Shown: positions 3,873-55,937, numbered from the stretch's first letter. The stretch: 64,000 bases of DNA from Vulcanimicrobiaceae bacterium (GCA_035937855.1 DASZHL010000030.1:9278-73277), one strand, 5' to 3'. Notes: a model not told the origin generated them from the letters alone. A program made the numbers and translations.

Positions 3873-4580
3873 TTATTGCTCAAGATGAATGACGAATGGA
3901 TTGAAATTGGTGTCTCTGTCGTAAACATCGATTCTTTCCACACGTTTGAGAGCCGCGACGACTCGATACGTGATGGGGATCATCACGACTTCGACGACGA
4001 CTTTGAGAACCCAACTGGAGAGAACGGATGAGACCAGCAGTCCGTTTGGAATAACGCCGTATAGTGCTATGGAGGCGAAGAGAATGGAATTTGCAAGCTG
4101 ACCCACCAGCGTCGACGTGACCAGGCGAGCCCAGAGATGCTTTCCCTCCGAAAAAACCTTCAGTTTCGCAATCGCATAGTCGTTCAGAAACTCTCCCGTG
4201 AACACCGCGATCCAGCCGCCGAAGAGTATCCTCGGGACCTGATACAAAACACGTTTATACGCTTCGTTCGCATCGAACCCGGGAGCGGCCGGCAGCGTCG
4301 CTGCGATAACATAAAGAACGCCTGCCAACACCGAGCAGAGGAGGACGGTCCAAAGGGCGCTTCGCGCCCGCACATAGCCGTAAACTTCGGTGAGAATGTC
4401 TGAGAAAATATACGTGAACGGAAACCACAATATCGAAACGGGAACGACAAACTCGAAGAGGTTGACCAGCTTTCCGGCCGTGACGTCCGAAATGAGCTGA
4501 AAGGCGACGTACAACGCGGTGATGAACCCGAAAAACGTACGCCGAGTTCCTTTGTCCAGTGCATCAGTGGTCTCAATCAT
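3873..4580 (-). CDS. yhhQ: queuosine-precursor (preQ0/preQ1) transporter, YhhQ/VUT (DUF165) family
   Basis: Multi-TM protein with FPFTYIFSDILTEVYGY...GEFLNDYAIAKLK...LVGQLANSILF, typical of YhhQ. I place the start at Met 4580 (MIETTDAL) rather than at the long-ORF start 4718. Confidence 0.8.
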   Translation of the reverse strand: MIETTDALDKGTRRTFFGFITALYVAFQLISDVTAGKLVNLFEFVVPVSILWFPFTYIFSDILTEVYGYVRARSALWTVLLCSVLAGVLYVIAATLPAAPGFDANEAYKRVLYQVPRILFGGWIAVFTGEFLNDYAIAKLKVFSEGKHLWARLVTSTLVGQLANSILFASIALYGVIPNGLLVSSVLSSWVLKVVVEVVMIPITYRVVAALKRVERIDVYDRDTNFNPFVIHLEQ

Positions 4581-4779: not shown

Positions 4780-5043
4780 GAGCGCCCACATCAGGGGAAG
4801 CACTGATCACAGAGCGCCGCTTACGGCAAAGGCTTCAACCAGACGGTGCGGCAGTGCCATTAGTCGGCAATGTCGAGCGGTGGGGCTCCCAGGCCCACGA
4901 ACTCACGACATCTTCAAGGAGGAGAGTAACCGCGTCCCAAAACGCGCTGCTCAGATCACCCTAACGAAGCCGGAGAAAAAAGTGTGGGCTAACGAGTTCG
5001 AGTCCGCCTCAGGCAGCTCGCCGTCCCGCCCACGGAAGGTATT
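4780..5043 (+). promoter_or_regulatory. conserved noncoding leader, copy 1 (upstream of DUF3800-like gene)
   Basis: The last ~140 nt are about 90% identical to 13271-13406, with three single-nt indels (so not coding) and one variable ~15-nt block inside a GUGGGC...GCCCAC stem immediately 5' of the GGAAGG RBS. Confidence 0.45.
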
Positions 5044-6483
5044 ATGAACAATTCTACGACGAAAGTCAATTCATTAGAGCGGGAACCAGTTAAAGCAAGC
5101 GACCAGCCATCCCGTGTCCCCGGTGTCGCCCTCTACGTCGGTGAGGCCGGCTGCCCTCACCCTTTTGATGGTAGTGAGTCAACACCGTGCTTCATTGTCG
5201 GAGTGTTGGTGACGCCCGAAGCCGAAGCGTTTCGATCGGAAATAGAAGCGTTTCGCGCCACGCAACATTATCATGGGCCTTATCGCTGGAGCGAGACTAG
5301 CGACCACGCCGCTCGTCAAGCGTATCTAAATTTAGCGGAATATTTGCAAGCGGGAACTTCATCTGCATGGGATTTTCATGCGACGCGCTTTCCATCAAGG
5401 AACGTAAATCGGGAAGATTTTGGACACGACCGGTCTTATGCGTCTAGAAAAACCCTTCAAATAGGAATCGATGAAGCGCTAAAAGCGATGAGCCCTGAGG
5501 TTGGAGGACACCTTCAGATCGTTCTCCCCCGTAAAAGGCGCGACGGCAAAACGGCATATCAGCTTTCAGCTACAATCGAATATTTAGAAAAATACTATTC
5601 TGATCGCTTTCCAATGACGCAGATTGAAATCAAGTGGCGCGAGCCTGGGAGCGATCGAAACCTTGAAATTTGCAATCTTTTCGCTTCATCTCATCATTCA
5701 TATTTTACTCCTGATGAATGCGGATTCCCAAAGTGGAAAACTGCGAAGGCATATGCTGCACTTGGAAAGTGTTCTTATCAAGAATATATAGAACACTTCT
5801 TGCATCCACAAGAAATTCTCGCCGATTCACCGCCGAAAACCCGTGAGGATTTCGTCCAGGCGGCAATTGAAACGCTGCATGCAAAATATGGGGCCACGTC
5901 GAGAGACATCCGCGAAGAGCCGGCTTCTCAGGCTATTAGTGAAAAACCAAAACTTGCGGCAAACGGCAAGCTCGTTGCAATAGAGACGAGCGAGAACGCT
6001 TTCGTCGTGGTGAATCGCTGGGACTATCCACGCGGAACATTTCACCGGGAACTGGTTTCTATCGACCCTCACGAGGCATGTCCGAACGGATACGTCCGGC
6101 AAACTCCATCGAGCAGGGATGTTCTCGTAGAAGATGCTCGCGCGATTCTCGCTGATCGGCTAGGCGTACCAGCGGAAAGAATCATCGAGAAAATACGCCC
6201 ACCGTATGGCACTCTAGAAGGCGAGGTGATCGCGCTGGGAGAAAAACATTTCGCCGTCGTCAGACCATCAGAAAACCGACGCTTTACGATCGTCAAACCG
6301 GAGGTTTTCTCTTTTGAAAAACCGGCTGTGGGCGATTATGTACGGATCAAATTTTCCGGGAAGTTTACCGAAGGAACCCTCGTGCATCGCCCTGTTCTCC
6401 GTCACGAATCACAAGGCCGAAAGGCGGAATCTGTGCGCGATAAAGACGGGCAGGGAGCAAAATCCCTCGCGCATAGAATTTAA
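5044..6483 (+). CDS. DUF3800-like N-terminal domain fused to a conserved beta-rich C-terminal region (paralog 1)
   Basis: 479-aa ORF with a GGAAGG RBS, paralogous to 13407..14918. N-terminal YVGEAG...FIVGVLV...NLEICNLF resembles the DUF3800 DES/QxxD layout but is degenerate. The C-terminal GKLVAIETSENAFVVVNRWDYPRG and GEVIALGEKHFAVV...GDYVRIKF repeats are SH3/KfrB-like (tentative). Confidence 0.6.
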   Translation: MNNSTTKVNSLEREPVKASDQPSRVPGVALYVGEAGCPHPFDGSESTPCFIVGVLVTPEAEAFRSEIEAFRATQHYHGPYRWSETSDHAARQAYLNLAEYLQAGTSSAWDFHATRFPSRNVNREDFGHDRSYASRKTLQIGIDEALKAMSPEVGGHLQIVLPRKRRDGKTAYQLSATIEYLEKYYSDRFPMTQIEIKWREPGSDRNLEICNLFASSHHSYFTPDECGFPKWKTAKAYAALGKCSYQEYIEHFLHPQEILADSPPKTREDFVQAAIETLHAKYGATSRDIREEPASQAISEKPKLAANGKLVAIETSENAFVVVNRWDYPRGTFHRELVSIDPHEACPNGYVRQTPSSRDVLVEDARAILADRLGVPAERIIEKIRPPYGTLEGEVIALGEKHFAVVRPSENRRFTIVKPEVFSFEKPAVGDYVRIKFSGKFTEGTLVHRPVLRHESQGRKAESVRDKDGQGAKSLAHRI

Positions 6484-6532
6484 GTCAAGATAAAAAAGGG
6501 TACCATCTCGCCATAAACAGAAAGCTCCTCCG

Positions 6533-7120
6533 ATGAACGCACGCATCGTTCCGGTCATTTACGGGTCGGTCAGGACCGATCGCCAGGGAATCAAGGCCGC
6601 TCGCTTTGTAGTCAAGGAGCTTGAACGTCGCGGATACCATGCGGTGCTCGTCGATCCGCTCGAACGGCCCCTACCGTTGCTCGATCGGATGTACAAGCAA
6701 TTCGCTGCGGGTAAGGCGCCCAAGGTTCTCAGGGACTTGGCCGAGTTGTTCGTGAGTGCGGATGGTTTCATCGTCGTGTCCGGTGAGTATAACCACGGTA
6801 TACCGCCCGCGCTCAAGAACCTCATGGATCACTTCCTGGAGGAATATTTTTGGCGTCCCGCAGCCATCGTGTCGTATTCGGGCGGCAACTTCGGCGGCGT
6901 ACGCGCGGCCGTACAGTTGCGCTCGGTTCTTGGCGAAATGGGGATGGTCACGATCCCGACCAGCCAACCATTCCCGCACGTTGGCAACGCGTTCACCGAT
7001 GACGGCGAGCCTACCGATCCTAAGACACGAGACCGCATGGTGCCCTTCTTCGATGAATTCGCCTGGTATGTAGACGCGCTCCGCGAACAACGCCGCAAAG
7101 GCGTCCCGGACGGTGCCTAG
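6533..7120 (+). CDS. NAD(P)H-dependent FMN reductase family oxidoreductase
   Basis: IPVIYGSVRTDRQG...DGFIVVSGEYNHGIPPALKNLMDHF...AAIVSYSGGNFGG is a typical FMN_red/flavodoxin-like fold. Confidence 0.85.
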   Translation: MNARIVPVIYGSVRTDRQGIKAARFVVKELERRGYHAVLVDPLERPLPLLDRMYKQFAAGKAPKVLRDLAELFVSADGFIVVSGEYNHGIPPALKNLMDHFLEEYFWRPAAIVSYSGGNFGGVRAAVQLRSVLGEMGMVTIPTSQPFPHVGNAFTDDGEPTDPKTRDRMVPFFDEFAWYVDALREQRRKGVPDGA

Positions 7121-13154: not shown

Positions 13155-13406
13155 AGCTGCCGGCGCACATCGACCCAACCGATGCTCGCGGCAAAGGCTT
13201 CATCCCGACAGCACCGCAGCGCCATTGGTAGGCAACGCCGAGTGGCGGAGCACCGGCTAAGAAGTCGCCATTTCTTCAAGGGGGAGAGCAACCGCATCCC
13301 AAAACGCGCTGCTTCAGAATCACCCTAAACGAAGCCGGAGAAACAAAGTGTGGGCTAACGAGTCCGAGCCACCGAACAGCGGGTCGCCGTCCCACCCACG
13401 AAAGGT
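13155..13406 (+). promoter_or_regulatory. conserved noncoding leader, copy 2
   Basis: See copy 1. The core tcttcaagg.ggagag.aaccgc.tcccaaaacgcgctgc...cgaagccggagaaa.aaagtgtgggctaacgagt.cgag is shared, and the indels are not multiples of three. Confidence 0.45.
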
Positions 13407-14918
13407 ATGATGGAGAATTTTCAGGCGGAAGTCAATCCCTCCTCAGCGCAGGATGAGCTTGTTCGCCTCGAAGCGAGTAAGCAAGGATCTCTCGCTCGCG
13501 GCTTATCGCTATATGTTGATGAAGGTGGCTCCTCTCATCCATTCAATGGAAGTGAACGCAAACCATACTTCATCATCGGAGTCTTGGTGACGCCGGAACA
13601 CGAGGCTTTTCGATCGGAAATAGAAGCGTTTTGCGCTACGCAGCGTTATCAGGGACCGTATCATTGGATCGAGCAATCCAAGTCTGAACTAGGGCAACAA
13701 CAAACAGAAGCGTACCGAAACCTTGCCGAATACATAAGAGCGGGAACTTCATCTGCATGGGATTTCCACGCGAGGCTCTTTCCAGCGATAAATGTAAACG
13801 AGGAAGACTTCGGTCATAGCCAGCATTATGCATACAAAAAACTCCTTCAAATTGGGATCGACGAAGCGTTAGACGCGACGAGCTTCAAGGTCGGCAAACG
13901 CCTCGAAATCATTCTTTCCGGCAAGAGTCGTGACAGCACGAAAGCCAATGGTGATTCAAAATTAAAGGACACTAAAAGATACTTAGAAGAACATTATTCC
14001 ACGCAGTTCCCCGAAGCCGAGATTGAAGTCCGATGGGTCCCGCAAGAGACGGATCGTAACTTACAAATCTGCGATATGTTCACTTCAACGTATCATACAT
14101 ATATAACGCCTGACCACTGCAAAAATACTCAAAAGTGGGATCTTGCAAAGGTCTATAGTTCGCTTATAAAATGCGATTACCAAGAATACATGGACCACAC
14201 CTTGCACCCTCAGGAAGTTCTCTCAGATGCACCGCCAAGAAACCGTGAAGATATCATTAAGGCGGCAATCAAAAAACTACATGCAAAATATGGAACTCTC
14301 TCGGAAGGCGTCCGTGAGGAAATCGCTTCTCATGCTATCGACAAAAAACCAAAACTCGCGGAAAACGGCAAGCTCGTCGCGATAGAGACGAGCGAGAACG
14401 CTTTCGTCGTAGTGAATCGCTGGGACTATCCCCGCGGAACATTTCTCAGAGAACTGGTTTCCATCGATCCTCAGAAGGCACGTCCACACGAACATCTCCA
14501 GCAAATTCCATCGAACAGGGATATCGTCGTACAAGACGCTCGCGCGGTTCTCGCCGATCGGCTGGGTATACCGCCGGAGAAAATCATCGAGAAAGCCCGC
14601 CCTCCGCGCGGCACTCTTGAAGGCGAAGTGATCGCGCTGGGAGAGAAGCATTTCGCCGTCGTCAGTTCATTCGAAAACGGACGGTTTACGATCGTCCAGT
14701 CCGACGTTTTCTCTTTTGAAAAACCGGCAGTAGGGGACCAAATTCGGATCAAATTTGTCGGGAGGTCTACCGAAGGAACCGTCGTGCATCGGCCTGGTCT
14801 CCGTCATGAATCGCAAGACCGAAAGATGCAATATATACGCGATAGAGACGGGCAAAGAGCTAAATCGCTAGCGCAGAGAAACCAAGTCAAGATAAAGAAG
14901 GGTACGATTTCACTATGA
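13407..14918 (+). CDS. DUF3800-like N-terminal domain + conserved C-terminal region (paralog 2)
   Basis: 503 aa. YVDEGG and NLQICDMF keep DE(S)-like and QxxD-like motifs. The C-terminal half is nearly identical to paralog 1 (KPKLAENGKLVAIETSENAFVVVNRWDYPRGTF). Confidence 0.6.
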   Translation: MMENFQAEVNPSSAQDELVRLEASKQGSLARGLSLYVDEGGSSHPFNGSERKPYFIIGVLVTPEHEAFRSEIEAFCATQRYQGPYHWIEQSKSELGQQQTEAYRNLAEYIRAGTSSAWDFHARLFPAINVNEEDFGHSQHYAYKKLLQIGIDEALDATSFKVGKRLEIILSGKSRDSTKANGDSKLKDTKRYLEEHYSTQFPEAEIEVRWVPQETDRNLQICDMFTSTYHTYITPDHCKNTQKWDLAKVYSSLIKCDYQEYMDHTLHPQEVLSDAPPRNREDIIKAAIKKLHAKYGTLSEGVREEIASHAIDKKPKLAENGKLVAIETSENAFVVVNRWDYPRGTFLRELVSIDPQKARPHEHLQQIPSNRDIVVQDARAVLADRLGIPPEKIIEKARPPRGTLEGEVIALGEKHFAVVSSFENGRFTIVQSDVFSFEKPAVGDQIRIKFVGRSTEGTVVHRPGLRHESQDRKMQYIRDRDGQRAKSLAQRNQVKIKKGTISL

Positions 14919-14934
14919 ACAGTAGGCTCAGCCG

Positions 14935-15520
14935 ATGAACACACGCATCGTCCCCGTCATTTACGGGTCGGTCCGGACCGATCGCCAGGGAATCAAGGCC
15001 GCTCATTTCGTGGTTAAGGAGCTTGAACGTCCAGGATACCATGCGGTTCTCGTCGATCCGCTCGAACGTCGCATTCCGCTTCTCGATCGGAGTATAAGCA
15101 ATTTGCCGAGGGTGAGGCGCCCAAGGTTCTCAGGGACTTGGCCGAGATGTTCGTGAGCGCGGACGGTTTCATCGTCGTTTTTGGTGAGTATAACCACGGT
15201 ATACCGCCCGCGCTTAAGAACCTCATGGATCATTTCATGGAGGAATATTTTTGGCGTCCCGCGGCCATCGTGTCCTATTCGGGCGGCAGCTTCGGCGGCG
15301 TACGCGCGGCCGCGCAGTTGCGCTCGGTTCTCGGCGAAATGGGAATGGTCACGATCCCGACCAGCCAACCATTCCCGCACGTTGGCAACGCGTTCACCGA
15401 CGACGGCGAGCCGACCGATCCTAAGACACGAGAACGCTAGGTACCCTTTTCTATGAATTCACTTGGTTTGTAGATGCGCTCCGCGAACAACGCTGTAAAG
15501 GCATTCCGGACGGATGCTAG
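14935..15520 (+). pseudogene. FMN reductase pseudogene (copy of 6533..7120)
   Basis: About 90% nt identity to 6533..7120. It has a 1-nt deletion near 15091 (cggatgtacaag vs cgga-gtataag), an in-frame TAG at 15436-15438 (cgcatggtg vs cgctaggta) and a further 1-nt deletion. The ORF track splits it into 14935..15156 and 15138..15440. Confidence 0.85.
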
Positions 15521-15619: not shown

Positions 15620-15648
15620 TTGACTATGCTCGATTTCTTCTGTATAAT
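15620..15648 (+). promoter_or_regulatory. near-consensus sigma70-type promoter upstream of the APH-family gene
   Basis: TTGACT, a 17-nt spacer, then TATAAT, about 93 nt upstream of the ATG at 15741. Confidence 0.45.
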
Positions 15649-15740: not shown

Positions 15741-16730
15741 ATGAAGAATTCCATTTTGCCAGATGAAGTAATCGCCCTCGCCGGGAAATTTTGCGCTGAG
15801 CAGCCCCACCTGATTGCCACAGGGACGGAGGCGGACGTTTATTCGCTCGATGATGCGCGAGTGTTGAAAGTCTATCGAGCAGAGGGAGCTCTGAAGCACG
15901 TCCAGGCGCTACAGGATTTTTATAATCGTGCCAGTGTGGAGAATGTTGGCTTTGCTATACCAAGTATCAATGAATGCGGCAGCTACGAGGAGATGGTATA
16001 CTCCGTCGATCAGCGCTTGGTTGGCGTTCCATTATCGGATATTCCCCATGCGTTTGAAGATTCGCAGTTGACGGAGCAATACATCGATACGGTTTTGGCC
16101 ATCCAGAAAATCACCGTATTTCCACCGTATGCTCGCAGGAAGCTTCTGGATCCGAGCGGTCGACCCGAAGACTGGAATAGCTTCATCCGAGAGGAAGCCA
16201 TCAAGAAGCATCGTAAACTCATCAAGAAGCATCGTAAACTCAGCAATGAACTCCCGGCTAAAGTTGTCGAAATCCTTGGCCCTATTACGGTTCTGGCTGA
16301 CTTCTTTGATTCTCCGTACAAAGGTGAAGATCGTTTAGTTCATGGCGATTATCATCCGGGTAATGTGTTGATACTCGATGGCCGTGTCAGCGCCGTTGTC
16401 GACTTTGGCACCTTTACATTGTTCGGTGATCCTCTATACGATGCGGCGACTGCCTGCGGCTTTTTCAGTATGTATGAGACTGATCAAATACGGACTAGGA
16501 AAGCTGCCTTGGATTTACTATTCGATAAAATTGGAGATGCAAACGAATCCAAGGTGTCTGCTTATCTTTTGGTCGCTGCGCTGACGACGTGCGACCTCTA
16601 TCCAGATAAATCGCTCCCAATCTATGAGACTGGACATTTTCAGTGGGCGCAGTCAGTGCTTGCGGACAAGCAAACCTGGGAAGCTGTGGCCCGCCCGCGT
16701 CAAGATAAGTTGGTACCAAAGTTTGGATAA
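15741..16730 (+). CDS. aminoglycoside/choline-kinase-type phosphotransferase (APH family)
   Basis: Catalytic loop LVHGDYHPGNVLI and DFG-like VVDFGTF. Confidence 0.8.
   Translation: MKNSILPDEVIALAGKFCAEQPHLIATGTEADVYSLDDARVLKVYRAEGALKHVQALQDFYNRASVENVGFAIPSINECGSYEEMVYSVDQRLVGVPLSDIPHAFEDSQLTEQYIDTVLAIQKITVFPPYARRKLLDPSGRPEDWNSFIREEAIKKHRKLIKKHRKLSNELPAKVVEILGPITVLADFFDSPYKGEDRLVHGDYHPGNVLILDGRVSAVVDFGTFTLFGDPLYDAATACGFFSMYETDQIRTRKAALDLLFDKIGDANESKVSAYLLVAALTTCDLYPDKSLPIYETGHFQWAQSVLADKQTWEAVARPRQDKLVPKFG
16200..16241 (+). repeat. perfect 21-bp tandem duplication inside the APH-family gene
   Basis: atcaagaagcatcgtaaactc occurs twice, giving an in-frame IKKHRKL IKKHRKL. Confidence 0.95.
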
Positions 16731-29667: not shown

Positions 29668-32600
29668 TCATCCGGTGAGGCGACGAAGGACCGAGTCAAG
29701 GCGTTCCCGAGCGCCGGGATGATCTTGTCGAGCGGCGAGTCGATACCATTGAGCCGCTTGTTCGAGGTCTTGCGTGACGCCGAGGCCGTTTTCGTACATC
29801 CGGCCGAGATGATCCTGTGCATGGGCGTCACCTTGTTCGGCGGCTTTGCGGTACCACCGCATCGCCTGTTCGTCGTTCCGCTCGGTGCCCTCTTTGGCAT
29901 AGAGGTCGGCGAGATGTCGCTGAGCTTGGACATGACCTTGATTGGCGGCTTGGTGCAGCCAATGCAATGCTTGTTGCTCGTCTCGCTCGACGCCGATTCC
30001 GTCTTTGAACGAGAGACCGATCTTGAACGGACTCTCGGCATCTTCGTCACCGCGGTCGTCGGTCAATTCAATATCGCCCTCACTGGTGAGGGAGGAGAAG
30101 ATGAGGGCAAATCGTGCGTCGGTCGACAGTGGATTGGCCTGCGCAACATCAGGGGATTCGCTCGGAATGCCCTGATGTTCGCGGAGGAGACCCTGCGCAT
30201 ACATCTCGCCGATGCTGAATTTCGCTTGCCGGTGGCCTTGATCAGCGGCTTTGCGGAACCAATAGACGGCTTCACTATAGTTTTGCGATGTGCCGAGGCC
30301 CGCCCTTCGGAGATTTCCGATCTCGAATTGAGCATCGGCATGACCTTGATCGGCGGCTTTACGCAGCCAATGCATGGCTTGCTCGTAATCGTGCGGAACG
30401 CCGGATCCTTCGAGGGAGAACATACCCAAACGATATTGCGCATTCGCAAAATCTTGTTCGGCAGCTTTCCTCAACCATTGAATTGCTTGCGCGAAATCTT
30501 GACCGACGGCATTGCTTGAAGCGGAAAGAATGCCCAGATCACATTGCGCTTGCGCATGGCCTTGTTCAGCGGCCTTGTGATACCACCAGAGTGCGTATTC
30601 GATATTTTGCTTCGTGCCGTATCCCTTTTCGTAGAGGAGGCCGACGCGATGCTGGGCGTCCGCATACCCTTGTTCGGCGGCCCGGCGATACCAGCGCATA
30701 GCCTGAGTGTAATCTTGCGTTACTCCCCACCCGTTCTCATATAAGTGTCCGACGTGGAATTTCGCGGGAGAATGTCCTCGCTCGGCGGCTTGGAGATACG
30801 AATACATGGCTTGTGCAAAATCGCGCGGAACGCCCTTCCCGCTTTCGTAAAGATTTCCGATATTGGTGAGAGCGTACAAACTCCCTCGTTCGGCGGCTCT
30901 GCGGTACCAGGTCATCGCTTGAAGATAATCTTGCTTGAGGGCATATCCGTTCTCGTAGAAACGCCCAATGTTATTGAGGGCTGCACTCTCTCCTTGATCG
31001 GCAGCCATGCGATACCAACTGAGGGCCTCGGCATAGTCTTGCGGGACGCCTGATCCCTGTGCGTAGAGAAAGCCGACGTTGAATTGCGCGGGCGCATATC
31101 CTTGATCGGCCGCCTTGCGGTACCAGAGCATCGCATGCGTTGGGTCTTTGGGTACGCCGCTGCCGTCTTCGCAGAAGAGACCGATGCGGGTTTGGGCTCG
31201 AACGTGTCCTTGTTCGGCAGCATTGCGATACCATTTCAAGGCTTGAGCATAATCTTGAAGAACGCCCTTTCCGTCTTCGTAAAGCATGCCCAAGTTGAAT
31301 TGCGCGGCCTGATAGCCGTGATCGGCCGCATTTTTGTACCATTGCATCGCCTGGATATAATCTTGGAAGACGCCCTTGCCGTCTTCGTACATGACGCCGA
31401 GATTGTTTTGCGCGCCGAGATGGCCTTGCCTGGCGGCTCGGAGGTACCAGGTTATCGCTTGTCCGTAATCTTGCTTTACGCCGCGTCCCATTTCATAAAA
31501 ACGGCCGACCGCGAATTGTGCATCGAGATCACCAAAATTTGCGGCTTTGCGATACCAGTACATGGCCGCAACATCATCGCGCGCTACTCCACGCCCATGT
31601 TCGTGGAGCCCCGCGATGTTGAATTGCGCAAACGGACTTCCTTGCTCGGCGGCTTTCCCGTACCAATAGAGCGCCTGCGCATAATCTTGCGTGACACCCA
31701 AACCTCCGGCGTACAGATAGCCGACGTTTGTTTGTGCGTGCATTTCTCCTTGATCGGCCGCCTTGCGATACCAAAACAGCGCTTGGGCATAATCCCGCGT
31801 GACGCCGCGTCCCATGCGATAGAGCGTTCCAATCTCGCTTTGCGCAAAGGCGTGACCTTGATCGGCCGCCTTTCGGAACCATGACATCGCGTGCACGTAA
31901 TTTTGCGGCACGCCGAGCCCCTGTCGGTGAAATATCGCAATTTCGTATTGCGCCTCCGCGTAGCCTTTATGCGCGGCTTTGCGAATCCATGCCATCGCCT
32001 GCGCGTAATCTTGGCGAATGCCGTAGCCTTTCTTATAAAGGCAGCCGAGTTTGGTCTGAGCTTCGGCGTAGCCTCGATCAGCCGCTTTCAGGTACCAGGA
32101 AAGCGCTTGTACATAGTCTTGGGGAACGCCCATTCCCTCCTCGAAAAGAGTTCCGATCTCCGTTTGGGCCTGCAGATTTCCGCGATCTGCGGCTTTGGAG
32201 AACCACAGCATCGCCGTGTCCCAATCTCCTCTCATCATTAAGAGCATACCGAGGGAGTTTTGCGCGTCGGAGTCGTCTTGATCCGCAGCTTTGAGATACC
32301 AGAATTCCGCCGCTTCCTTATCGCACTCGTTTCCGAGACCTCGTTCGTAGAGGTCTGCGACGTTGCGTTGAGCTACAGCATCTCCTTGATCTGCGGCTTT
32401 GCGAAACCATTCCATCGCCTGGGCATAATCAGTCGGGACCCCGAGACCCTCCCGATATGCGAGTCCCATAGCAATTTGCGCGTCGGTCGAATCTTGATCC
32501 GCAGCTTTCCGATACCATGCAATGCCTTGTTGAAGGTCTTGCGCCGGCCCCAGTCCCCGCATACAGAGTTCGCCCATTTTCAATTGAGCGTGTACGTCGC

Positions 32601-33132
32601 CTTGCTCGGCGGCTTTGAGAAACCATGCGAGGGCCAGCGTGAGATCTCGCTCTACGCCGCGTCCATGGTACAAAGCGTCGCCGATTTCATATTGCGCATT
32701 TGGATGACCTTGATCGGCGGCTTTTTGATACCATCGCCTCGCGTGAATTGCATCGTTGGGCGTGCCGAACCCCGCGTCATAGCACTGCGCCAGAGCGAAT
32801 TGCGCTTGAACATTGCCTTGGTAAGCGGCCTTCTGAAACCAGGAGAGCGCTTCGGCGGAATCTTGAGGACCGTAGGGAACGCTCAAGCCGTTTTTGTAAA
32901 ACTGAGCGATTTTGTATTGGGCGTCCGCGAAGCCGTATTCTGCGGCCTTGCGATACCAGAACGCTGCTTGGAGGTAATCGCGTTCGCCGTCGCTGCCTTC
33001 TTCATACTGCGCCCCGAGAACGTATTGCGCGACGGCATCGCCTCGCTGCGCCGCAGTTTGCAGCCGCCTCGCAGCAATCAAGCGGCGAAGGCGTGTGAGA
33101 ATCGTGAAGAGGATAGACTTCCGGTTACGCAT
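29668..33132 (-). CDS. giant Sel1-like repeat (SLR) protein, ~30 repeats
   Basis: 1154 aa. I counted 27 consecutive units plus 3 terminal units of the form A..W[YF]rKAAeQG...AQ..lG..Ye.G.GV.qDy. Confidence 0.85.
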   Translation of the reverse strand: MRNRKSILFTILTRLRRLIAARRLQTAAQRGDAVAQYVLGAQYEEGSDGERDYLQAAFWYRKAAEYGFADAQYKIAQFYKNGLSVPYGPQDSAEALSWFQKAAYQGNVQAQFALAQCYDAGFGTPNDAIHARRWYQKAADQGHPNAQYEIGDALYHGRGVERDLTLALAWFLKAAEQGDVHAQLKMGELCMRGLGPAQDLQQGIAWYRKAADQDSTDAQIAMGLAYREGLGVPTDYAQAMEWFRKAADQGDAVAQRNVADLYERGLGNECDKEAAEFWYLKAADQDDSDAQNSLGMLLMMRGDWDTAMLWFSKAADRGNLQAQTEIGTLFEEGMGVPQDYVQALSWYLKAADRGYAEAQTKLGCLYKKGYGIRQDYAQAMAWIRKAAHKGYAEAQYEIAIFHRQGLGVPQNYVHAMSWFRKAADQGHAFAQSEIGTLYRMGRGVTRDYAQALFWYRKAADQGEMHAQTNVGYLYAGGLGVTQDYAQALYWYGKAAEQGSPFAQFNIAGLHEHGRGVARDDVAAMYWYRKAANFGDLDAQFAVGRFYEMGRGVKQDYGQAITWYLRAARQGHLGAQNNLGVMYEDGKGVFQDYIQAMQWYKNAADHGYQAAQFNLGMLYEDGKGVLQDYAQALKWYRNAAEQGHVRAQTRIGLFCEDGSGVPKDPTHAMLWYRKAADQGYAPAQFNVGFLYAQGSGVPQDYAEALSWYRMAADQGESAALNNIGRFYENGYALKQDYLQAMTWYRRAAERGSLYALTNIGNLYESGKGVPRDFAQAMYSYLQAAERGHSPAKFHVGHLYENGWGVTQDYTQAMRWYRRAAEQGYADAQHRVGLLYEKGYGTKQNIEYALWWYHKAAEQGHAQAQCDLGILSASSNAVGQDFAQAIQWLRKAAEQDFANAQYRLGMFSLEGSGVPHDYEQAMHWLRKAADQGHADAQFEIGNLRRAGLGTSQNYSEAVYWFRKAADQGHRQAKFSIGEMYAQGLLREHQGIPSESPDVAQANPLSTDARFALIFSSLTSEGDIELTDDRGDEDAESPFKIGLSFKDGIGVERDEQQALHWLHQAANQGHVQAQRHLADLYAKEGTERNDEQAMRWYRKAAEQGDAHAQDHLGRMYENGLGVTQDLEQAAQWYRLAARQDHPGARERLDSVLRRLTG
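30178..33054 (-). repeat. tandem ~108-bp coding repeat array (27 SLR units); 3 more units at ~29713-30027
   Basis: Periodicity is seen in the translation (aa 27-985). The array generates long spurious antisense ORFs (29608..30519, 31084..31884, 32260..). Confidence 0.85.
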
Positions 33133-50031: not shown

Positions 50032-50135
50032 GTCTGTGGGCCTTTGGTAGACTCCTCCGCACCGGCATGGCTCCTTGCTTTCGGGGTCGAACGATAGCCT
50101 TGTGAATCTTCTCGATCGGCTTGAAACGACTTTGC
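50032..50135 (+). repeat. direct repeat A: copy of murA promoter region + first ~11 codons
   Basis: 51 nt and 39 nt are identical to 52787-52837 and 52852-52890, separated by a 14-nt diverged block. Confidence 0.95.
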
Positions 50136-50331
50136 TCGATCAATCTAGGCGTGGTTTTGATGCGGAAAAATAGCACGAGGGCGTGGCGCGAGCTGATAAA
50201 ATGGTTGAATTGCATCCCTGCTACTTCTGCGAATTCGGATACCTTCTTCTTCGCCGACAAGGTGAATTTTGGCGTCGGTTGGTTTAGCGTAGTAGTTCCC
50301 GTGTACTTTCCATCGCGCACGATTGTTTTGG

Positions 50332-50802
50332 TCAGAATTCATCATCCTCGACCTCTGGAAGATTGCCGGCTTGGAGTTGCTGGATCGTCTCCTCAAGCAA
50401 TGCTTGGGCATCGTGATCGCCCGCTTTCAATGAGGCAATAGCCGCCCGCTCGTAGGGGTCATCGCCGGAACCCTCCTTGCGTGGGCCAATCTCCAAAACG
50501 TGCACGACGACGACGCTTCCTTCCAGCTTGGCGGTCGCGATGAAGTGGGGCGCGAGGGCCTTGGAGATAGCCCGCAACCGGCCGTATGTCACCCGGTGAT
50601 AGCCCTTGAGTTCGCCAATCAGCGGCTTGCCGATGCTTGGGTTCGCGCCGAACTCGCGGAGTTTTCGGCGCATTCCATCCTGGACTTTTGAAGGAAGCCG
50701 GTCGAACGCGGTCCGTGCATCGGGGGAGAAACCAATGCGGACAAGCACCTGCTTGGGAAGGGCAGTCGGGGGCATTTCTTGCTTCCGTAGCTTCGGTTTC
50801 AC
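50332..50802 (-). CDS. RelE/ParE-superfamily toxin-like protein with ~45-aa acidic C-terminal extension
   Basis: FSPDARTAFDRLPSKVQDGMRRKLREFGANPSIGKPLIGELKGYHRVTYGRLRAI...VVVVHVLEIGPRKE follows the ParE/RelE layout. The tail ...LLEETIQQLQAGNLPEVEDDEF is extra. Confidence 0.55.
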   Translation of the reverse strand: MKPKLRKQEMPPTALPKQVLVRIGFSPDARTAFDRLPSKVQDGMRRKLREFGANPSIGKPLIGELKGYHRVTYGRLRAISKALAPHFIATAKLEGSVVVVHVLEIGPRKEGSGDDPYERAAIASLKAGDHDAQALLEETIQQLQAGNLPEVEDDEF

Positions 50803-52716: not shown

Positions 52717-52795
52717 TCAGTATTCGTCACCTTCGACCTCCATTAGATTTCCGGCGTGTAATTGCTGGATCGTCTTCTTGAGCAATGTCTGTGGG
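52717..52795 (-). pseudogene. 3'-terminal remnant of a second RelE/ParE-like gene (tail only)
   Basis: The minus strand reads LLKKTIQQLHAGNLMEVEGDEY*, compared with LLEETIQQLQAGNLPEVEDDEF* at 50332. About 78% nt identity over ~80 nt. The body is replaced by the murA upstream region. Confidence 0.5.
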
Positions 52796-52890
52796 CCTTT
52801 GGTAGACTCCTCCGCACCGGCATGGCTCCTTGCTTTCCGCGGCGAATTGGGGCCTTGTGAATCTTCTCGATCGGCTTGAAACGACTTTGC
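52787..52890 (+). repeat. direct repeat B: authentic murA promoter region + first codons
   Basis: See repeat A. Confidence 0.95.
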
Positions 52891-54206
52891 GCGTGCGCGG
52901 CGGCTCCGTGCTGTCCGGATCGGTCGAAGTTCACGGCGCGAAAAACGCGGCGCTCCCGATCATGGCCGCTTGTTTGCTGGCCTCGGGGCCGGTGACGCTG
53001 CACCGCATTCCGCGCATCACCGACGTCTCGGTGATGTGGTCGCTCCTCGAAGCCTTGGGCGCGCGCATGCGCTTGGAAGGTAAGGGGACGATCACGATCG
53101 ACACCTCCTCGGTTTCCTCGGTTCGCGCACCCTACACGCTCGTGCGGAAGTTGGCGGCTAGCTTCGACGTCGTGGGACCGTTGCTCGGACGCTTCGGCCG
53201 TGCGGAGGTCCCGCTGCCGGGAGGTTGCGTCCTGGGGACGCGGGCGACCGATCTTCACGAGCTGGCCTTCCGCCGACTCGGAGCCGAGGTCACGACTGAG
53301 CGGGGGTTCCTCGTTGCGAAAACGCGCGGGACCTCCTTGGTCGGAGCCCGCATCGAGTTTCGAACTCCGAGCATCGGCGCAACGAAGAACGCGATGTTGG
53401 CCTCGGTCCTGGCCGAGGGGGAAACACAGATCGTCAACGCCGCGATGGAGCCCGAGGTTATCGATCTCGCGAATTTCCTCAACAAGATGGGCGCACGCGT
53501 GAGCGGTCACGGAACCGACGTGATCACTATCGAGGGTGTCCGCGAGCTGCACGGCGTCGAGTACGAGATCATTCCCGATCGGATCGTGGCCGGAACGCTG
53601 CTCCTTTGCGGCGCCGCCACGCGCGGAGACGTCACGGTGACGCGTTGCGCACCGGGTCATCTCGCTGCGTTGACCGGCAAGCTCGGTGAATGCGGCGTCG
53701 TCGTCACGACCGGATCCGACTGGGTTCGCGCGCAAGCCGACGGCGTGACCGGCGGCACCGACATTTTGACCGCGCCGTTTCCGGGTTTTCCGACGGATTT
53801 GCAACCGCCGGTGCTAGCGTTCTTATGCACGGTGCCCGGCACCAGCGTCGTCGAAGAGACAATCTTCAACGCCCGTTTCTCCTACGTAAACGAGTTGGCG
53901 CGTATGGGAGCGGACGTTCGTGTGGCCATCGACAATAATACCGCTCTTATCAAGGGCGGGACGCCGCTCTCCGGTGCGCCGGTCGAGGCTCCGGATATTC
54001 GTGCGGGGGCAGCGCTTGTTGTCGCAGGTCTCGCGGCGCACGGCGAAACGGATATCATCGGTTTGGAATATATCGATCGCGGTTACGAGCGGCTTGAAGA
54101 AATGTTGTCGGTCCTTGGAGGGCAGGTTCATCGTAGTAGCGGCGTCACACCGTTGATGGAGCCGGTGGGAACCTTCGAGACGACCGAGTTTCCCAAGGTC
54201 GGCTGA
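52830..54206 (+). CDS. murA: UDP-N-acetylglucosamine 1-carboxyvinyltransferase (canonical copy)
   Basis: LRVRGGSVLSGSVEVHGAKNAALP, LPGGCVLGTRATDLH (Cys115 equivalent), FPGFPTDLQ and DIRAGAALVVAGL. The start is TTG at 52830 or GTG at 52857. Confidence 0.92.
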   Translation: MLSAANWGLVNLLDRLETTLRVRGGSVLSGSVEVHGAKNAALPIMAACLLASGPVTLHRIPRITDVSVMWSLLEALGARMRLEGKGTITIDTSSVSSVRAPYTLVRKLAASFDVVGPLLGRFGRAEVPLPGGCVLGTRATDLHELAFRRLGAEVTTERGFLVAKTRGTSLVGARIEFRTPSIGATKNAMLASVLAEGETQIVNAAMEPEVIDLANFLNKMGARVSGHGTDVITIEGVRELHGVEYEIIPDRIVAGTLLLCGAATRGDVTVTRCAPGHLAALTGKLGECGVVVTTGSDWVRAQADGVTGGTDILTAPFPGFPTDLQPPVLAFLCTVPGTSVVEETIFNARFSYVNELARMGADVRVAIDNNTALIKGGTPLSGAPVEAPDIRAGAALVVAGLAAHGETDIIGLEYIDRGYERLEEMLSVLGGQVHRSSGVTPLMEPVGTFETTEFPKVG

Positions 54207-54912: not shown

Positions 54913-55937
54913 AGGTCTTCCGTATTCTCGCATTCCTGCTTCCTGTGTTTTTCGCGCAGGGTGGTTTCGCTGTGGCGGCTCCGCCCGTTCCCTCCAATCC
55001 AGCCGGGGCGACCGCTGATTTTGGCGGCTTCCAGCTTCAAGTGCAAGCCATCGATTACAACGACAAAACCGGGAATTTCACGATAGCCGACCATTTCACG
55101 GGAACCCGCGAAGGGACCGAAATCAGCGGCGATCATGCGAAGGGGAATTCGCGTACGAAAATGATGGAAGTCTTCGGGCACGTCGTCGTTCATCAGACGG
55201 CGCCGCTCGAACCTCGGACAGAGCTTTCGTCGGTGGGCAAGGAGCCCGCGACGTTGACCTGCGATCGTTTAACGATTGACGGAAACCAAAAGCTCTATAC
55301 CGCCATCGGCGACGTGCACTATCTGCAAGGAACGCAGGGCGCCTCAGCTGAGCGCGGTTCTCTGAACCAAACGACGCACATCATGCACATGGAGGGTCAT
55401 GTGCATATGCAGAACGGCGACCAATCGATCGATGCGGATAGCGTTGATTATAATACGCAGACGGGTCAAGGTCATGCCGGCGGGCACGTCTCTGTTCATC
55501 AGACGGCGTCGCTCGAATCTGAAGGTGCGCCGCCTACGATCGGCAACGAGCCTGTATTGGTGACGTGCGATCGTTTAACGATTGACGAAAGGAAGAGCCT
55601 CTATACCGCAGACGGTAACGTGCACTATTCCCAGGGAACGCGCAACGCGGTCGCTGAGCTAGGTACGCTCAATGAGGCCACGCACATGGTTCACATGGAG
55701 CGACACGTGCACATGCAGGATGTCGACCAATCCATCGACGCTGATAGCGTCGATTATTATTTAAAGACGGGTGAGGGTCATGCCGTAGGTAATATCATTC
55801 TTCGAGGACCCGCCCAAACGGGCGTATCCGAGGCCGCGACACCTGCACCCCCATCGAAAAAAAAGAAAAAGGCCGCTCCGCCGCCCTCAGCTGATGCATC
55901 GCCGCCGCCCTCACCGGAGGCGTCTCCGCCGACATGA
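54909..55937 (+). CDS. secreted OstA/LptA-like beta-jellyroll protein with internal duplication and Pro/Lys-rich tail
   Basis: Signal peptide FRILAFLLPVFFAQGGFA. Repeated pattern ..CDRLTID....LYTA.G.VHY.QGT......G.LN..TH..HME.HVHMQ...QSIDADSVDY resembles OstA_N units. The tail is PAPPSKKKKKAAPPPSADASPPPSPEASPP. Confidence 0.55.
   Translation: MKVFRILAFLLPVFFAQGGFAVAAPPVPSNPAGATADFGGFQLQVQAIDYNDKTGNFTIADHFTGTREGTEISGDHAKGNSRTKMMEVFGHVVVHQTAPLEPRTELSSVGKEPATLTCDRLTIDGNQKLYTAIGDVHYLQGTQGASAERGSLNQTTHIMHMEGHVHMQNGDQSIDADSVDYNTQTGQGHAGGHVSVHQTASLESEGAPPTIGNEPVLVTCDRLTIDERKSLYTADGNVHYSQGTRNAVAELGTLNEATHMVHMERHVHMQDVDQSIDADSVDYYLKTGEGHAVGNIILRGPAQTGVSEAATPAPPSKKKKKAAPPPSADASPPPSPEASPPT
55191..55802 (+). 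repeat. tandem ~306-bp intragenic duplication (2 units, ~75% identical)
   Basis: catcagacggcg.cgctcgaa...tgcgatcgtttaacgattgac... recurs at 55191 and 55497. Confidence 0.85.

Follow-up and report, generated by a model that had tools for sequence, protein, structure and literature searches.

What is the role of a leader sequence that precedes two related genes in one genome? We addressed this question for a 64,000 nucleotide (nt) stretch of DNA, DASZHL010000030.1:9278-73277, hereafter called the window. The source genome is a metagenome-assembled genome of an uncultured member of the Eremiobacterota, Candidatus Baltobacteraceae. In the window, a leader at positions 4906-5043 lies upstream of a gene encoding a DUF3800-like protein, and a second version precedes a paralogue of that gene. 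An initial annotation had proposed that the leader is a structured, cis-regulatory RNA. Our alignments, together with repeat family and Pfam searches, show that each leader is the 5' end of one copy of a 2.3-kb dispersed duplication. The two copies are as follows.

4819-7120, plus strand: copy 1 of the duplication, with the leader, a DUF3800-like open reading frame (ORF) at 5044-6483, a 49-nt spacer and an intact FMN_red gene at 6533-7120.
13184-15520, plus strand: copy 2 of the duplication, with the leader, a DUF3800-like ORF at 13407-14918, a spacer and an FMN_red pseudogene at 14935-15520.

The DUF3800-like ORFs encode soluble proteins of 479 (copy 1) and 503 (copy 2) amino acids. According to Pfam, the second gene of the cassette specifies an NADPH-dependent FMN-reductase. 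In copy 2, this gene (14935-15520) has two 1-nt deletions and a premature TAG, and is 90% identical to the intact gene of copy 1. Differences between the FMN_red copies number 13, 10 and 34 at codon positions 1, 2 and 3, with third positions 17.5% diverged. This bias to third positions means that inactivation of copy 2 must have been recent. Beyond the limits of the duplication (4819 and 13184 on the 5' side) identity drops to 38%, the random level. The conserved blocks of the leader occur at just these two places in the window. We conclude that the leaders are paralogous 5' control regions of a duplicated cassette, comprising the leader, an orphan DUF3800-like gene and an FMN-reductase gene.

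Aligned with each other, the leaders (4906-5043 and 13268-13409) have 115 matches, 23 mismatches and 4 gap columns. This equates to 83% identity, or 81% if gaps are counted. Hence, the similarity noted initially is real, but the limits proposed for copy 2 (13271-13406) were too short by 3 nt at each end. Similarly, the insertions and deletions (indels) are indeed single nucleotides that do not preserve a triplet frame, but there are four rather than the three counted before. All are insertions in copy 2 (a T and an A near 4952-4954, an A following 4962 and a C following 4978) and all are 5' of position 4982. Other parts of the initial description hold. Thus, a variable block of 15 nt (5003-5017 in copy 1, 13369-13383 in copy 2) is mismatched at 11 positions and has the same length in both copies. 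In copy 1, this block is flanked by complementary arms, GUGGGC at 4984-4989 and GCCCAC at 5028-5033. Note that, in copy 2, the change 5028 G>A converts the closing pair of this stem to C.A on the sense strand. Replacement of the block by a small inversion was considered and rejected; by eye, the reverse complement gives 13 of 22 matches, compared to 12 of 22 for the direct orientation. The weaker similarity reported further upstream is also present, and extends to the edge of the duplication.

4819-4905 (copy 2: 13184-13267), plus strand: upstream, weakly conserved 5' flank, 74% identical with one 3-nt indel.

As the initial annotation had argued, the leader does not contain a conserved reading frame. 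The indels break any frame, and substitutions are distributed 12, 10 and 6 over the three codon positions. We also considered that the leader might be the decayed 3' end of an upstream gene, since one frame of copy 1 has 117 codons between 4694 and 5047 with no internal stop, and terminates in ATGA. This frame is broken in copy 2, and the explanation is further excluded by the 12/10/6 spread of substitutions and the lack of any Pfam match. Similarly, an integron attC site, or other DNA hairpin recombination site, was rejected; the sequences GTTAGCC and GGCTAAC partly fit the GTTRRRY and RYYYAAC consensus elements, but do not pair with each other.

Does the similarity between leaders indicate function? 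The initial annotation had argued so because the leader seemed more conserved than the N-terminal coding regions. This is correct as far as it goes, with 83% identity for the leader and 67% for the N-terminal two thirds of the ORF. However, the leader does not stand above the rest of the duplicate, where identity is 83% for the C-terminal third of the ORF, 80% for the 49-nt spacer between the genes and 90% for the FMN_red gene and pseudogene. The argument is also confounded, because the N-terminal segment is unusually old and the duplicate is a mosaic. Specifically, in the N-terminal part, the proportion of synonymous differences (pS) is 0.62 and synonymous divergence (dS) is approximately 1.3, which is saturated. 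The equivalent dS for the C-terminal part is 0.42, and this disparity suggests that recombination or gene conversion has occurred inside the gene. Since dS and identity differ among segments, the duplicate must be assembled from segments with different histories. As neutral proxies within the duplicate we used the spacer (20% divergence), FMN_red third positions (17.5%) and four-fold sites (29%). Averaged over all 138 nt, divergence of the leader is at the neutral level. Hence, most of the leader similarity is inherited.

The average conceals a segment that has changed far less.

4911-4997, no strand assigned: constrained non-coding core, copy 1; 87 nt, with 3 substitutions (all transitions) in 83 aligned nt and four 1-nt indels.
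13273-13363, no strand assigned: constrained non-coding core, copy 2; same alignment.

At a neutral rate of 0.2, the probability of 3 or fewer substitutions in 83 nt is 1.5e-5, and the observed level is about five times below that of neutral sequence. Fisher tests comparing the core (3/83) with the upstream flank (22/84) and the spacer (10/49) gave P=5e-5 and P=0.004 respectively. These figures bear on the simplest explanation, that the leader has no function and is a duplication relic, or a short gene conversion tract, in which all predicted elements occur by chance. The overall divergence of the leader, equal to that of the spacer and FMN_red third positions, would fit, as would the demonstrably mosaic duplicate. 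Conversely, divergence across the flank is strongly uneven. Furthermore, a recent conversion event would have erased the four indels, and indels in the core are in excess compared to the FMN_red pseudogene (P=0.007). We consider absence of function improbable. Rather, the pattern of substitutions suggests that the core is probably under purifying selection that acts on blocks of sequence and tolerates changes in their spacing.

We turned our attention to features that overlap the 3' part of the leader. The most prominent are on the minus strand.

4984-5033, minus strand: 50-nt hairpin, named H1, copy 1; the variable block 5003-5017 is the apex; -27.4 kcal/mol on the minus strand and -20.0 kcal/mol on the plus strand.
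13350-13399, minus strand: 50-nt hairpin H1, copy 2; same architecture; -22.1 kcal/mol on the minus strand and -14.8 kcal/mol on the plus strand.
4976-4981 (copy 2: UUUGUUU at 13341-13347), minus strand: U6 tract, 2 nt past H1; on the plus strand this is an A6 spacer between GGAG and GTG.
5041-5069, minus strand: sigma-70-like promoter, copy 1; TTGACT-17-CATAAT, matching at 10 of 12 positions; the predicted start, G5033, is the first base of the hairpin.
13407-13435, minus strand: homologous promoter-like site, copy 2; TTGACT-17-CATCAT, matching at 9 of 12 positions.

In both copies, H1 is approximately 7 kcal/mol more stable on the antisense strand, and the consensus fold shows the same bias (-33.3 kcal/mol for the minus strand and -24.1 kcal/mol for the plus strand). 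This asymmetry arises because between 3 and 5 G.U pairs on the minus strand become A.C on the sense strand. Consistent with this, the sole substitution in the outer stem, 5028 G>A, changes G-C to G.U on the minus strand and C-G to C.A on the plus strand. We considered the variable block as compensatory evidence for the stem and rejected this; in copy 2, hairpins with a shuffled block are equally stable.

On the minus strand, H1 has the hallmarks of an intrinsic terminator. Thus, GC-rich stem-loops of -27.4 and -22.1 kcal/mol are followed by ACUUUUUU and ACUUUGUUU, in copies 1 and 2 respectively. The stem is an interrupted helix of 20 base pairs, with the U-tract beginning after 2 nt. Among approximately 120 sites in the window where a hairpin precedes a T-run (at least 6 T in 8 nt), the two H1 hairpins are the strongest. 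Similar terminator-like hairpins, with U-runs, are carried by related Eremiobacterota loci. Unlike ordinary intrinsic terminators, H1 is located opposite the 5' end of a gene, and no minus-strand gene lies upstream for it to terminate. Only the predicted promoter, positioned 8 nt upstream of the hairpin base and within codons 1-9 of the main ORF, could feed it. Across the window, just 7 sites match at 10 or more of 12 positions; this promoter is among them, and two of the others are upstream of genes. Its -35 hexamer, TTGACT, has been kept inside the most diverged stretch of coding sequence. The best sigma-70-like match in the window is elsewhere (15620-15648, plus strand; TTGACT-17-TATAAT, 11/12), approximately 90 nt upstream of an APH-family kinase gene at 15741. 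This match suggests that the organism uses canonical -35 and -10 promoter elements. A hydrophobic mini-ORF on the minus strand (4989-5069, 26 amino acids) was considered as a type I toxin and discarded, being absent from copy 2.

On the plus strand, the same segment of the leader contains a short upstream ORF (uORF).

4982-5047, plus strand: copy-1 uORF of 21 codons (MWANEFESASGSSPSRPRKVL); GTG start, GGAG at 4972-4975 located 6 nt 5' of it, and TGA overlapping the main ATG (ATGA).
13348-13410, plus strand: copy-2 uORF of 20 codons (MWANESEPPNSGSPSHPRKV); GGAG at 13337-13340 and TGA overlapping the main ATG.
5034-5039, GGAAGG (copy 2: 13400-13405, GAAAGG), plus strand: weak Shine-Dalgarno sequence of the main ORF, abutting the 3' arm of the hairpin and outside the stem.

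The uORF is intact in both copies and in each has the arrangement GGAG-N6/7-GTG. All four leader indels are 5' of the uORF and the replaced block is length-neutral. The encoded peptides are hydrophilic. Hence, by sequence, both copies have a leader ORF with its own ribosome-binding site and a stop codon overlapping the main start. This layout would allow translational coupling of the uORF to the main ORF.

Taken together, these features are compatible with control of translation initiation by a cis-antisense RNA of approximately 58 nt, acting through uORF coupling. We favour this interpretation tentatively, as a serious possibility rather than a probability. Briefly, given the weak Shine-Dalgarno sequence and the ATGA overlap with the 20 or 21 codon uORF, translation of the main ORF would probably be coupled to that of the uORF. 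The 50-nt hairpin occupies the interval between the start codon of the uORF and the Shine-Dalgarno sequence of the main ORF. On the opposite strand, H1 lies between the sigma-70-like promoter and the U-tract, and can be read as the gene for the antisense RNA. The promoter at 5069-5041 would direct transcription from approximately 5033, with termination after the U-tract at 4976. By pairing with the leader, between the uORF start codon and the main Shine-Dalgarno sequence, this RNA would block translation of the uORF and, in turn, of the DUF3800-like protein. The dissimilar 15-nt apexes would restrict the action of each antisense RNA to its own paralogue, with no cross-talk. What remains of the core (4911-4975) would be a sense promoter or part of the 5' untranslated region (UTR).

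Several observations weigh against the antisense RNA. Sequence is the only basis for it, and two related copies amount to roughly one independent observation. Some of the H1 statistics are also unremarkable. With a looser rule for the T-run, the H1 hairpins rank 2nd and 10th of 523, and shuffled windows yield about one hairpin of -27 kcal/mol or below. For copy 2, the z-score of H1 is only -0.95, and the variable apex stabilises the hairpin no more than a shuffled block. Conservation of the -10 hexamer is trivial, because it is mostly the reverse complement of the start codon and an A/T-rich spacer. Similarly, the A6 run is equally well explained as the spacer between the Shine-Dalgarno sequence and start codon of the uORF. 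In turn, differences between the uORFs are nearly all non-synonymous, with no codon position bias, and an open frame of 21 codons is expected by chance in about 1 of 3 cases. The predicted RNA is a closed hairpin, with an apical loop of 3-4 nt and no single-stranded 5' tail, which is atypical for antisense RNAs that act by kissing loops. Finally, an antisense RNA leaves the best conserved segment, 4911-4975, unexplained.

Conservation of that segment might instead be explained if the leader acts as DNA. In this scenario, the core is an ordinary promoter and operator with a 5' UTR, containing the sense promoter and sites for regulators, such as a CGCG-N8-CGCG palindrome. The hairpin, U-run and antisense promoter would be incidental. 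Logically, every gene requires a promoter, and the rest of the shared flank has no recognisable candidate. The short palindrome is within the core, the fold statistics for copy 2 are weak, and sigma-70-like matches at 9 or more of 12 positions are not enriched in the intergenic DNA of the window. However, the four 1-nt insertions shift the spacing of conserved blocks by 3 or 4 nt, which is awkward for -35 and -10 elements or for phased protein binding sites. Furthermore, the change 4934 G>A disrupts the palindrome in copy 2, and the strand-biased hairpin beside a U-tract is left unexplained. A point in favour of the antisense RNA is that no sense-strand sigma-70-like promoter common to both copies was found, even when a match at 7 of 12 positions was accepted. 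We regard a promoter and operator as possible, if on the unlikely side.

We next considered the sense transcript, since the initial proposal was of a structured RNA with a variable loop. One part of this proposal stands; the hairpin does enclose the variable block. However, the sense-strand fold of the whole leader is no better than that of shuffled sequences, with z-scores of -0.87 (copy 1) and +0.70 (copy 2). A smaller domain gave a stronger signal in one copy.

4912-4969 (copy 2: 13274-13334), plus strand: predicted irregular hairpin domain with a CUUC...GAAG closing stem and a CGCG-UCCCAAAA-CGCG apex; all indels are in loops.

The fold of this domain is -18.2 kcal/mol in copy 1, with a z-score of -2.74, and -14.3 kcal/mol in copy 2, with a z-score of -0.21. 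The result is therefore equivocal. If functional, the domain might act with the hairpin at 4984-5033, which would gate the ribosome-binding site, in a riboswitch or a protein-binding 5' UTR. Constraint on the core, placement of every indel in a predicted loop, and the fact that 1 of 3 substitutions is U.G to C-G inside a stem, would all be expected of such an RNA. So would the behaviour of the copy-1 domain compared to shuffles, and an alternative CUUC:GAAGG pairing, involving the main Shine-Dalgarno sequence, in the minimum-energy fold of copy 1. Set against this are the z-scores for the whole leader and for the copy-2 domain, and loss of the anti-Shine-Dalgarno pairing in copy 2. The hairpin is also weaker on the sense strand, with an A.C mismatch in copy 2. 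No sense-strand terminator-like site was detected upstream of the ORF in either copy, and no homologue was found to supply covariation. More generally, the leader resembles riboswitches and structured 5' UTRs in its 5' position, its conserved blocks joined by linkers of variable length and its hairpin beside the ribosome-binding site. The likeness ends there; known aptamers, excess sense-strand stability and a phylogenetic distribution are all missing. Nor is there an expression platform, with no sense terminator and the Shine-Dalgarno sequence outside the stem. A structured sense-strand RNA is hence unlikely in our view.

Searches for known RNAs were consistent with this assessment. Using cmscan, with all 4227 families of Rfam 15 and gathering thresholds, there were 0 matches in the whole window. 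At the relaxed cut-off of E<=10, both leaders, searched on both strands, produced only two chance matches (to a miRNA and a snoRNA). The initial annotation had noted no match to the FMN, cobalamin, glycine, T-box, ZTP or guanidine riboswitch consensus. Nothing points to a ligand-sensing riboswitch. At the same cut-off, there was no match to sok or CopA in the leaders. Homologous leaders were also sought outside this genome. Scans for the exact pattern of the leader found 1 match in GTDB species genomes and 2 in JGI metagenome contigs; all three are chance occurrences inside coding DNA. There was no match to the leader in IMG/VR, or by blastn against plasmids and phages. The initial annotation had named the absence of any such homologue as evidence against itself, and none was found. 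This absence weighs little, given an orphan gene and scans that are insensitive through their demand for exact matches to blocks. Indeed, the JGI metagenome scan did not return the window's own contig. All contigs carrying the gene are essentially identical to the window; six differences occur only in one of them, and the others are 100% identical. The exception is a Logan contig, L003, that is otherwise like copy 1 and has six copy-2 variants at its end (window 6746-6781). These reflect either a chimeric assembly across the repeat or gene conversion within the population. The assignment of the genome to Candidatus Baltobacteraceae follows the source name given for its aspartyl-tRNA synthetase, to which the nearest other such enzymes are only 72-76% identical. 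In the collections searched, the element has two copies, in one genome, and it matches no known RNA family.

The identity of the downstream gene is relevant because DUF3800 genes have been linked to RNA before. Eleven DUF3800-associated RNA motifs, described by Weinberg et al. 2017, are mutually unrelated, can occur on either strand and in several cases have terminators; their function is unknown (PMC5737381). For our proteins, the copy-2 product matches Pfam family PF12686 with 23.4 bits, where the cut-off is 21, and the copy-1 product has no Pfam match. However assigned individually, a profile of both paralogues matches DUF3800 proteins at E=1e-17, and the alignment shows common motifs. Hallmarks of DUF3800 proteins are an N-terminal DE motif and a C-terminal QxxD motif (PMC7736814). 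The copy-2 protein keeps its acidic motifs (VDEGG and QICD). In the copy-1 protein (5044-6483) these are VGEAG and EICN, so VDE has become VGE and QxCD has become EICN. The Asp of the IDxK motif found in relatives is absent from both paralogues. Judged by these residues, the paralogues may be a pair in which copy 1 is inactive and copy 2 is active.

Relatives of the proteins are scarce. In a set of 5.8 billion clustered proteins, the DUF3800-like protein matched itself, its paralogue and nothing else. A search of 1.84 billion representative proteins gave five distant relatives, which matched the N-terminal domain alone. The C-terminal section of approximately 180 amino acids (5950-6483 and 14353-14918) had no relative in the 1.84 billion representative proteins or the PDB. 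In both paralogues, this section appears to be internally repeated (KLVAIETSENAFVVV... and GEVIALGEKHFAVV...). In the gene downstream of the leader, a highly divergent relative of DUF3800 is joined to an orphan C-terminal domain. Its nearest DUF3800 relatives encode proteins of approximately 230 amino acids and are from other Eremiobacterota (loci L008-L012).

Might the leader, then, specify a partner for the DUF3800-like protein? In this case the element would be a trans-acting or partner non-coding RNA, and the twelfth DUF3800-associated motif. There is precedent, in that DUF3800 genes are accompanied by 11 unrelated RNA structures, which can be on either strand and often have Rho-independent terminators (PMC5737381). 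Here, a constrained core and a terminator-like hairpin adjoin each of two DUF3800-like paralogues. Hence, there is a non-coding element tied to a gene of this family, a terminator-like hairpin at the locus, and motif orientation relative to the gene is not fixed among DUF3800-I to XI (e.g. RF02969 and RF02968). Even so, our Rfam search included the DUF3800-I to XI models and none of these eleven matched, even at E<=10. Also unlike the known motifs, the element described here has just two copies, in a single genome, lacks support from covariation and is beside a very divergent DUF3800 relative. In addition, when the minus strand is read 5' to 3', the core comes after the terminator-like hairpin and not before it. 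Finally, the nearest Eremiobacterota relatives lack a similar element; regions of 130-410 nt upstream of these genes (L008-L012) have no similarity to the leader and no Rfam motif. A partner RNA is, we believe, very unlikely.

Three loci from other Eremiobacterota, with standalone DUF3800 genes and one of them non-syntenic, each have a strong hairpin with a U-run at the 3' end of the gene, on the opposite strand (minus strand; L008 3704-3745, L010 3710-3754 and L009 3700-3741). The inner stem is common to all three (CUCUCCC...GGGAGA) and the outer stems are unlike. These hairpins could be the terminator of a neighbouring gene or a DUF3800-associated element. At L009 (1-6714), the DUF3800 gene adjoins a gene for a tRNA, and others around it encode a helicase, an MZB-domain protein, a PLD-like nuclease and a primase-polymerase-like protein. 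This context looks like a mobile or defence island.

Other features of the window were noted in passing. Divergent from copy 1, on the minus strand at 3873-4580, is a gene for a Vut_1 (YhhQ-like) transporter. Genes of this family are often preceded by a preQ1 riboswitch; the leader of the gene here has no Rfam match. At 29668-33132, also on the minus strand, is the gene for an 1154 amino acid protein with 28 Sel1 repeats, evident in the DNA as a family of 19-25 copies with a period of 108 nt. Diverged direct repeats are found at 50032-50402 versus 52717-52893, and at 55175-55785. These are 107 nt at 92% identity, 71 nt at 79% identity and a pair spaced by 306 nt (74-88%) inside an LptD_N/OstA-like gene.

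Returning to the antisense RNA, which we tentatively favour, similar arrangements exist elsewhere. In the CopA/CopT-tap-repA system of plasmid R1, and in sok/mok/hok, translation of the main gene is coupled to that of a leader ORF, and an antisense RNA blocks the latter. Our locus resembles these systems in three ways. First, a short leader ORF ends over the start of the main gene. Second, we predict a short cis-antisense RNA that has a promoter and terminator to itself and can pair with the region where translation of the leader ORF is initiated. Third, the apex is unlike between copies, as for specificity loops. There are also differences. The target here is a soluble protein of 479 or 503 amino acids, and not a replication initiator or small membrane toxin. 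In particular, the hydrophobic product that is regulated by type I toxin-antitoxin modules, such as hok/sok, has no counterpart. The predicted RNA also lacks a single-stranded tail and has loops of 3-4 nt. Note that we refer only to likeness of mechanism and make no claim of membership.

In summary, the element may be a lineage-specific 5' regulatory or antisense element, possibly another DUF3800-associated RNA. A more specific proposal is that the leader encodes an undescribed regulatory RNA for a gene of the DUF3800 (RNase H-like) family in the Eremiobacterota, a candidate phylum. This could be a uORF-gating cis-antisense RNA with a paralogue-specific apex, or a twelfth DUF3800-associated RNA that partners the protein. 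Stated in this form, the proposal is doubtful. At present, two copies of an element, in one genome and next to an orphan gene, are beyond the reach of comparative analysis, and the practical significance is small. If either a cis-antisense or partner RNA is produced, the association between DUF3800 genes and RNA would gain a concrete mechanism. Were antisense control of the uORF correct, RNA-based gene control would have been glimpsed for the first time in the Eremiobacterota, for which no cultured genetic system exists. The locus would then also be a further instance of the unexplained, repeated recruitment of unrelated non-coding RNAs by DUF3800 genes (PMC5737381).

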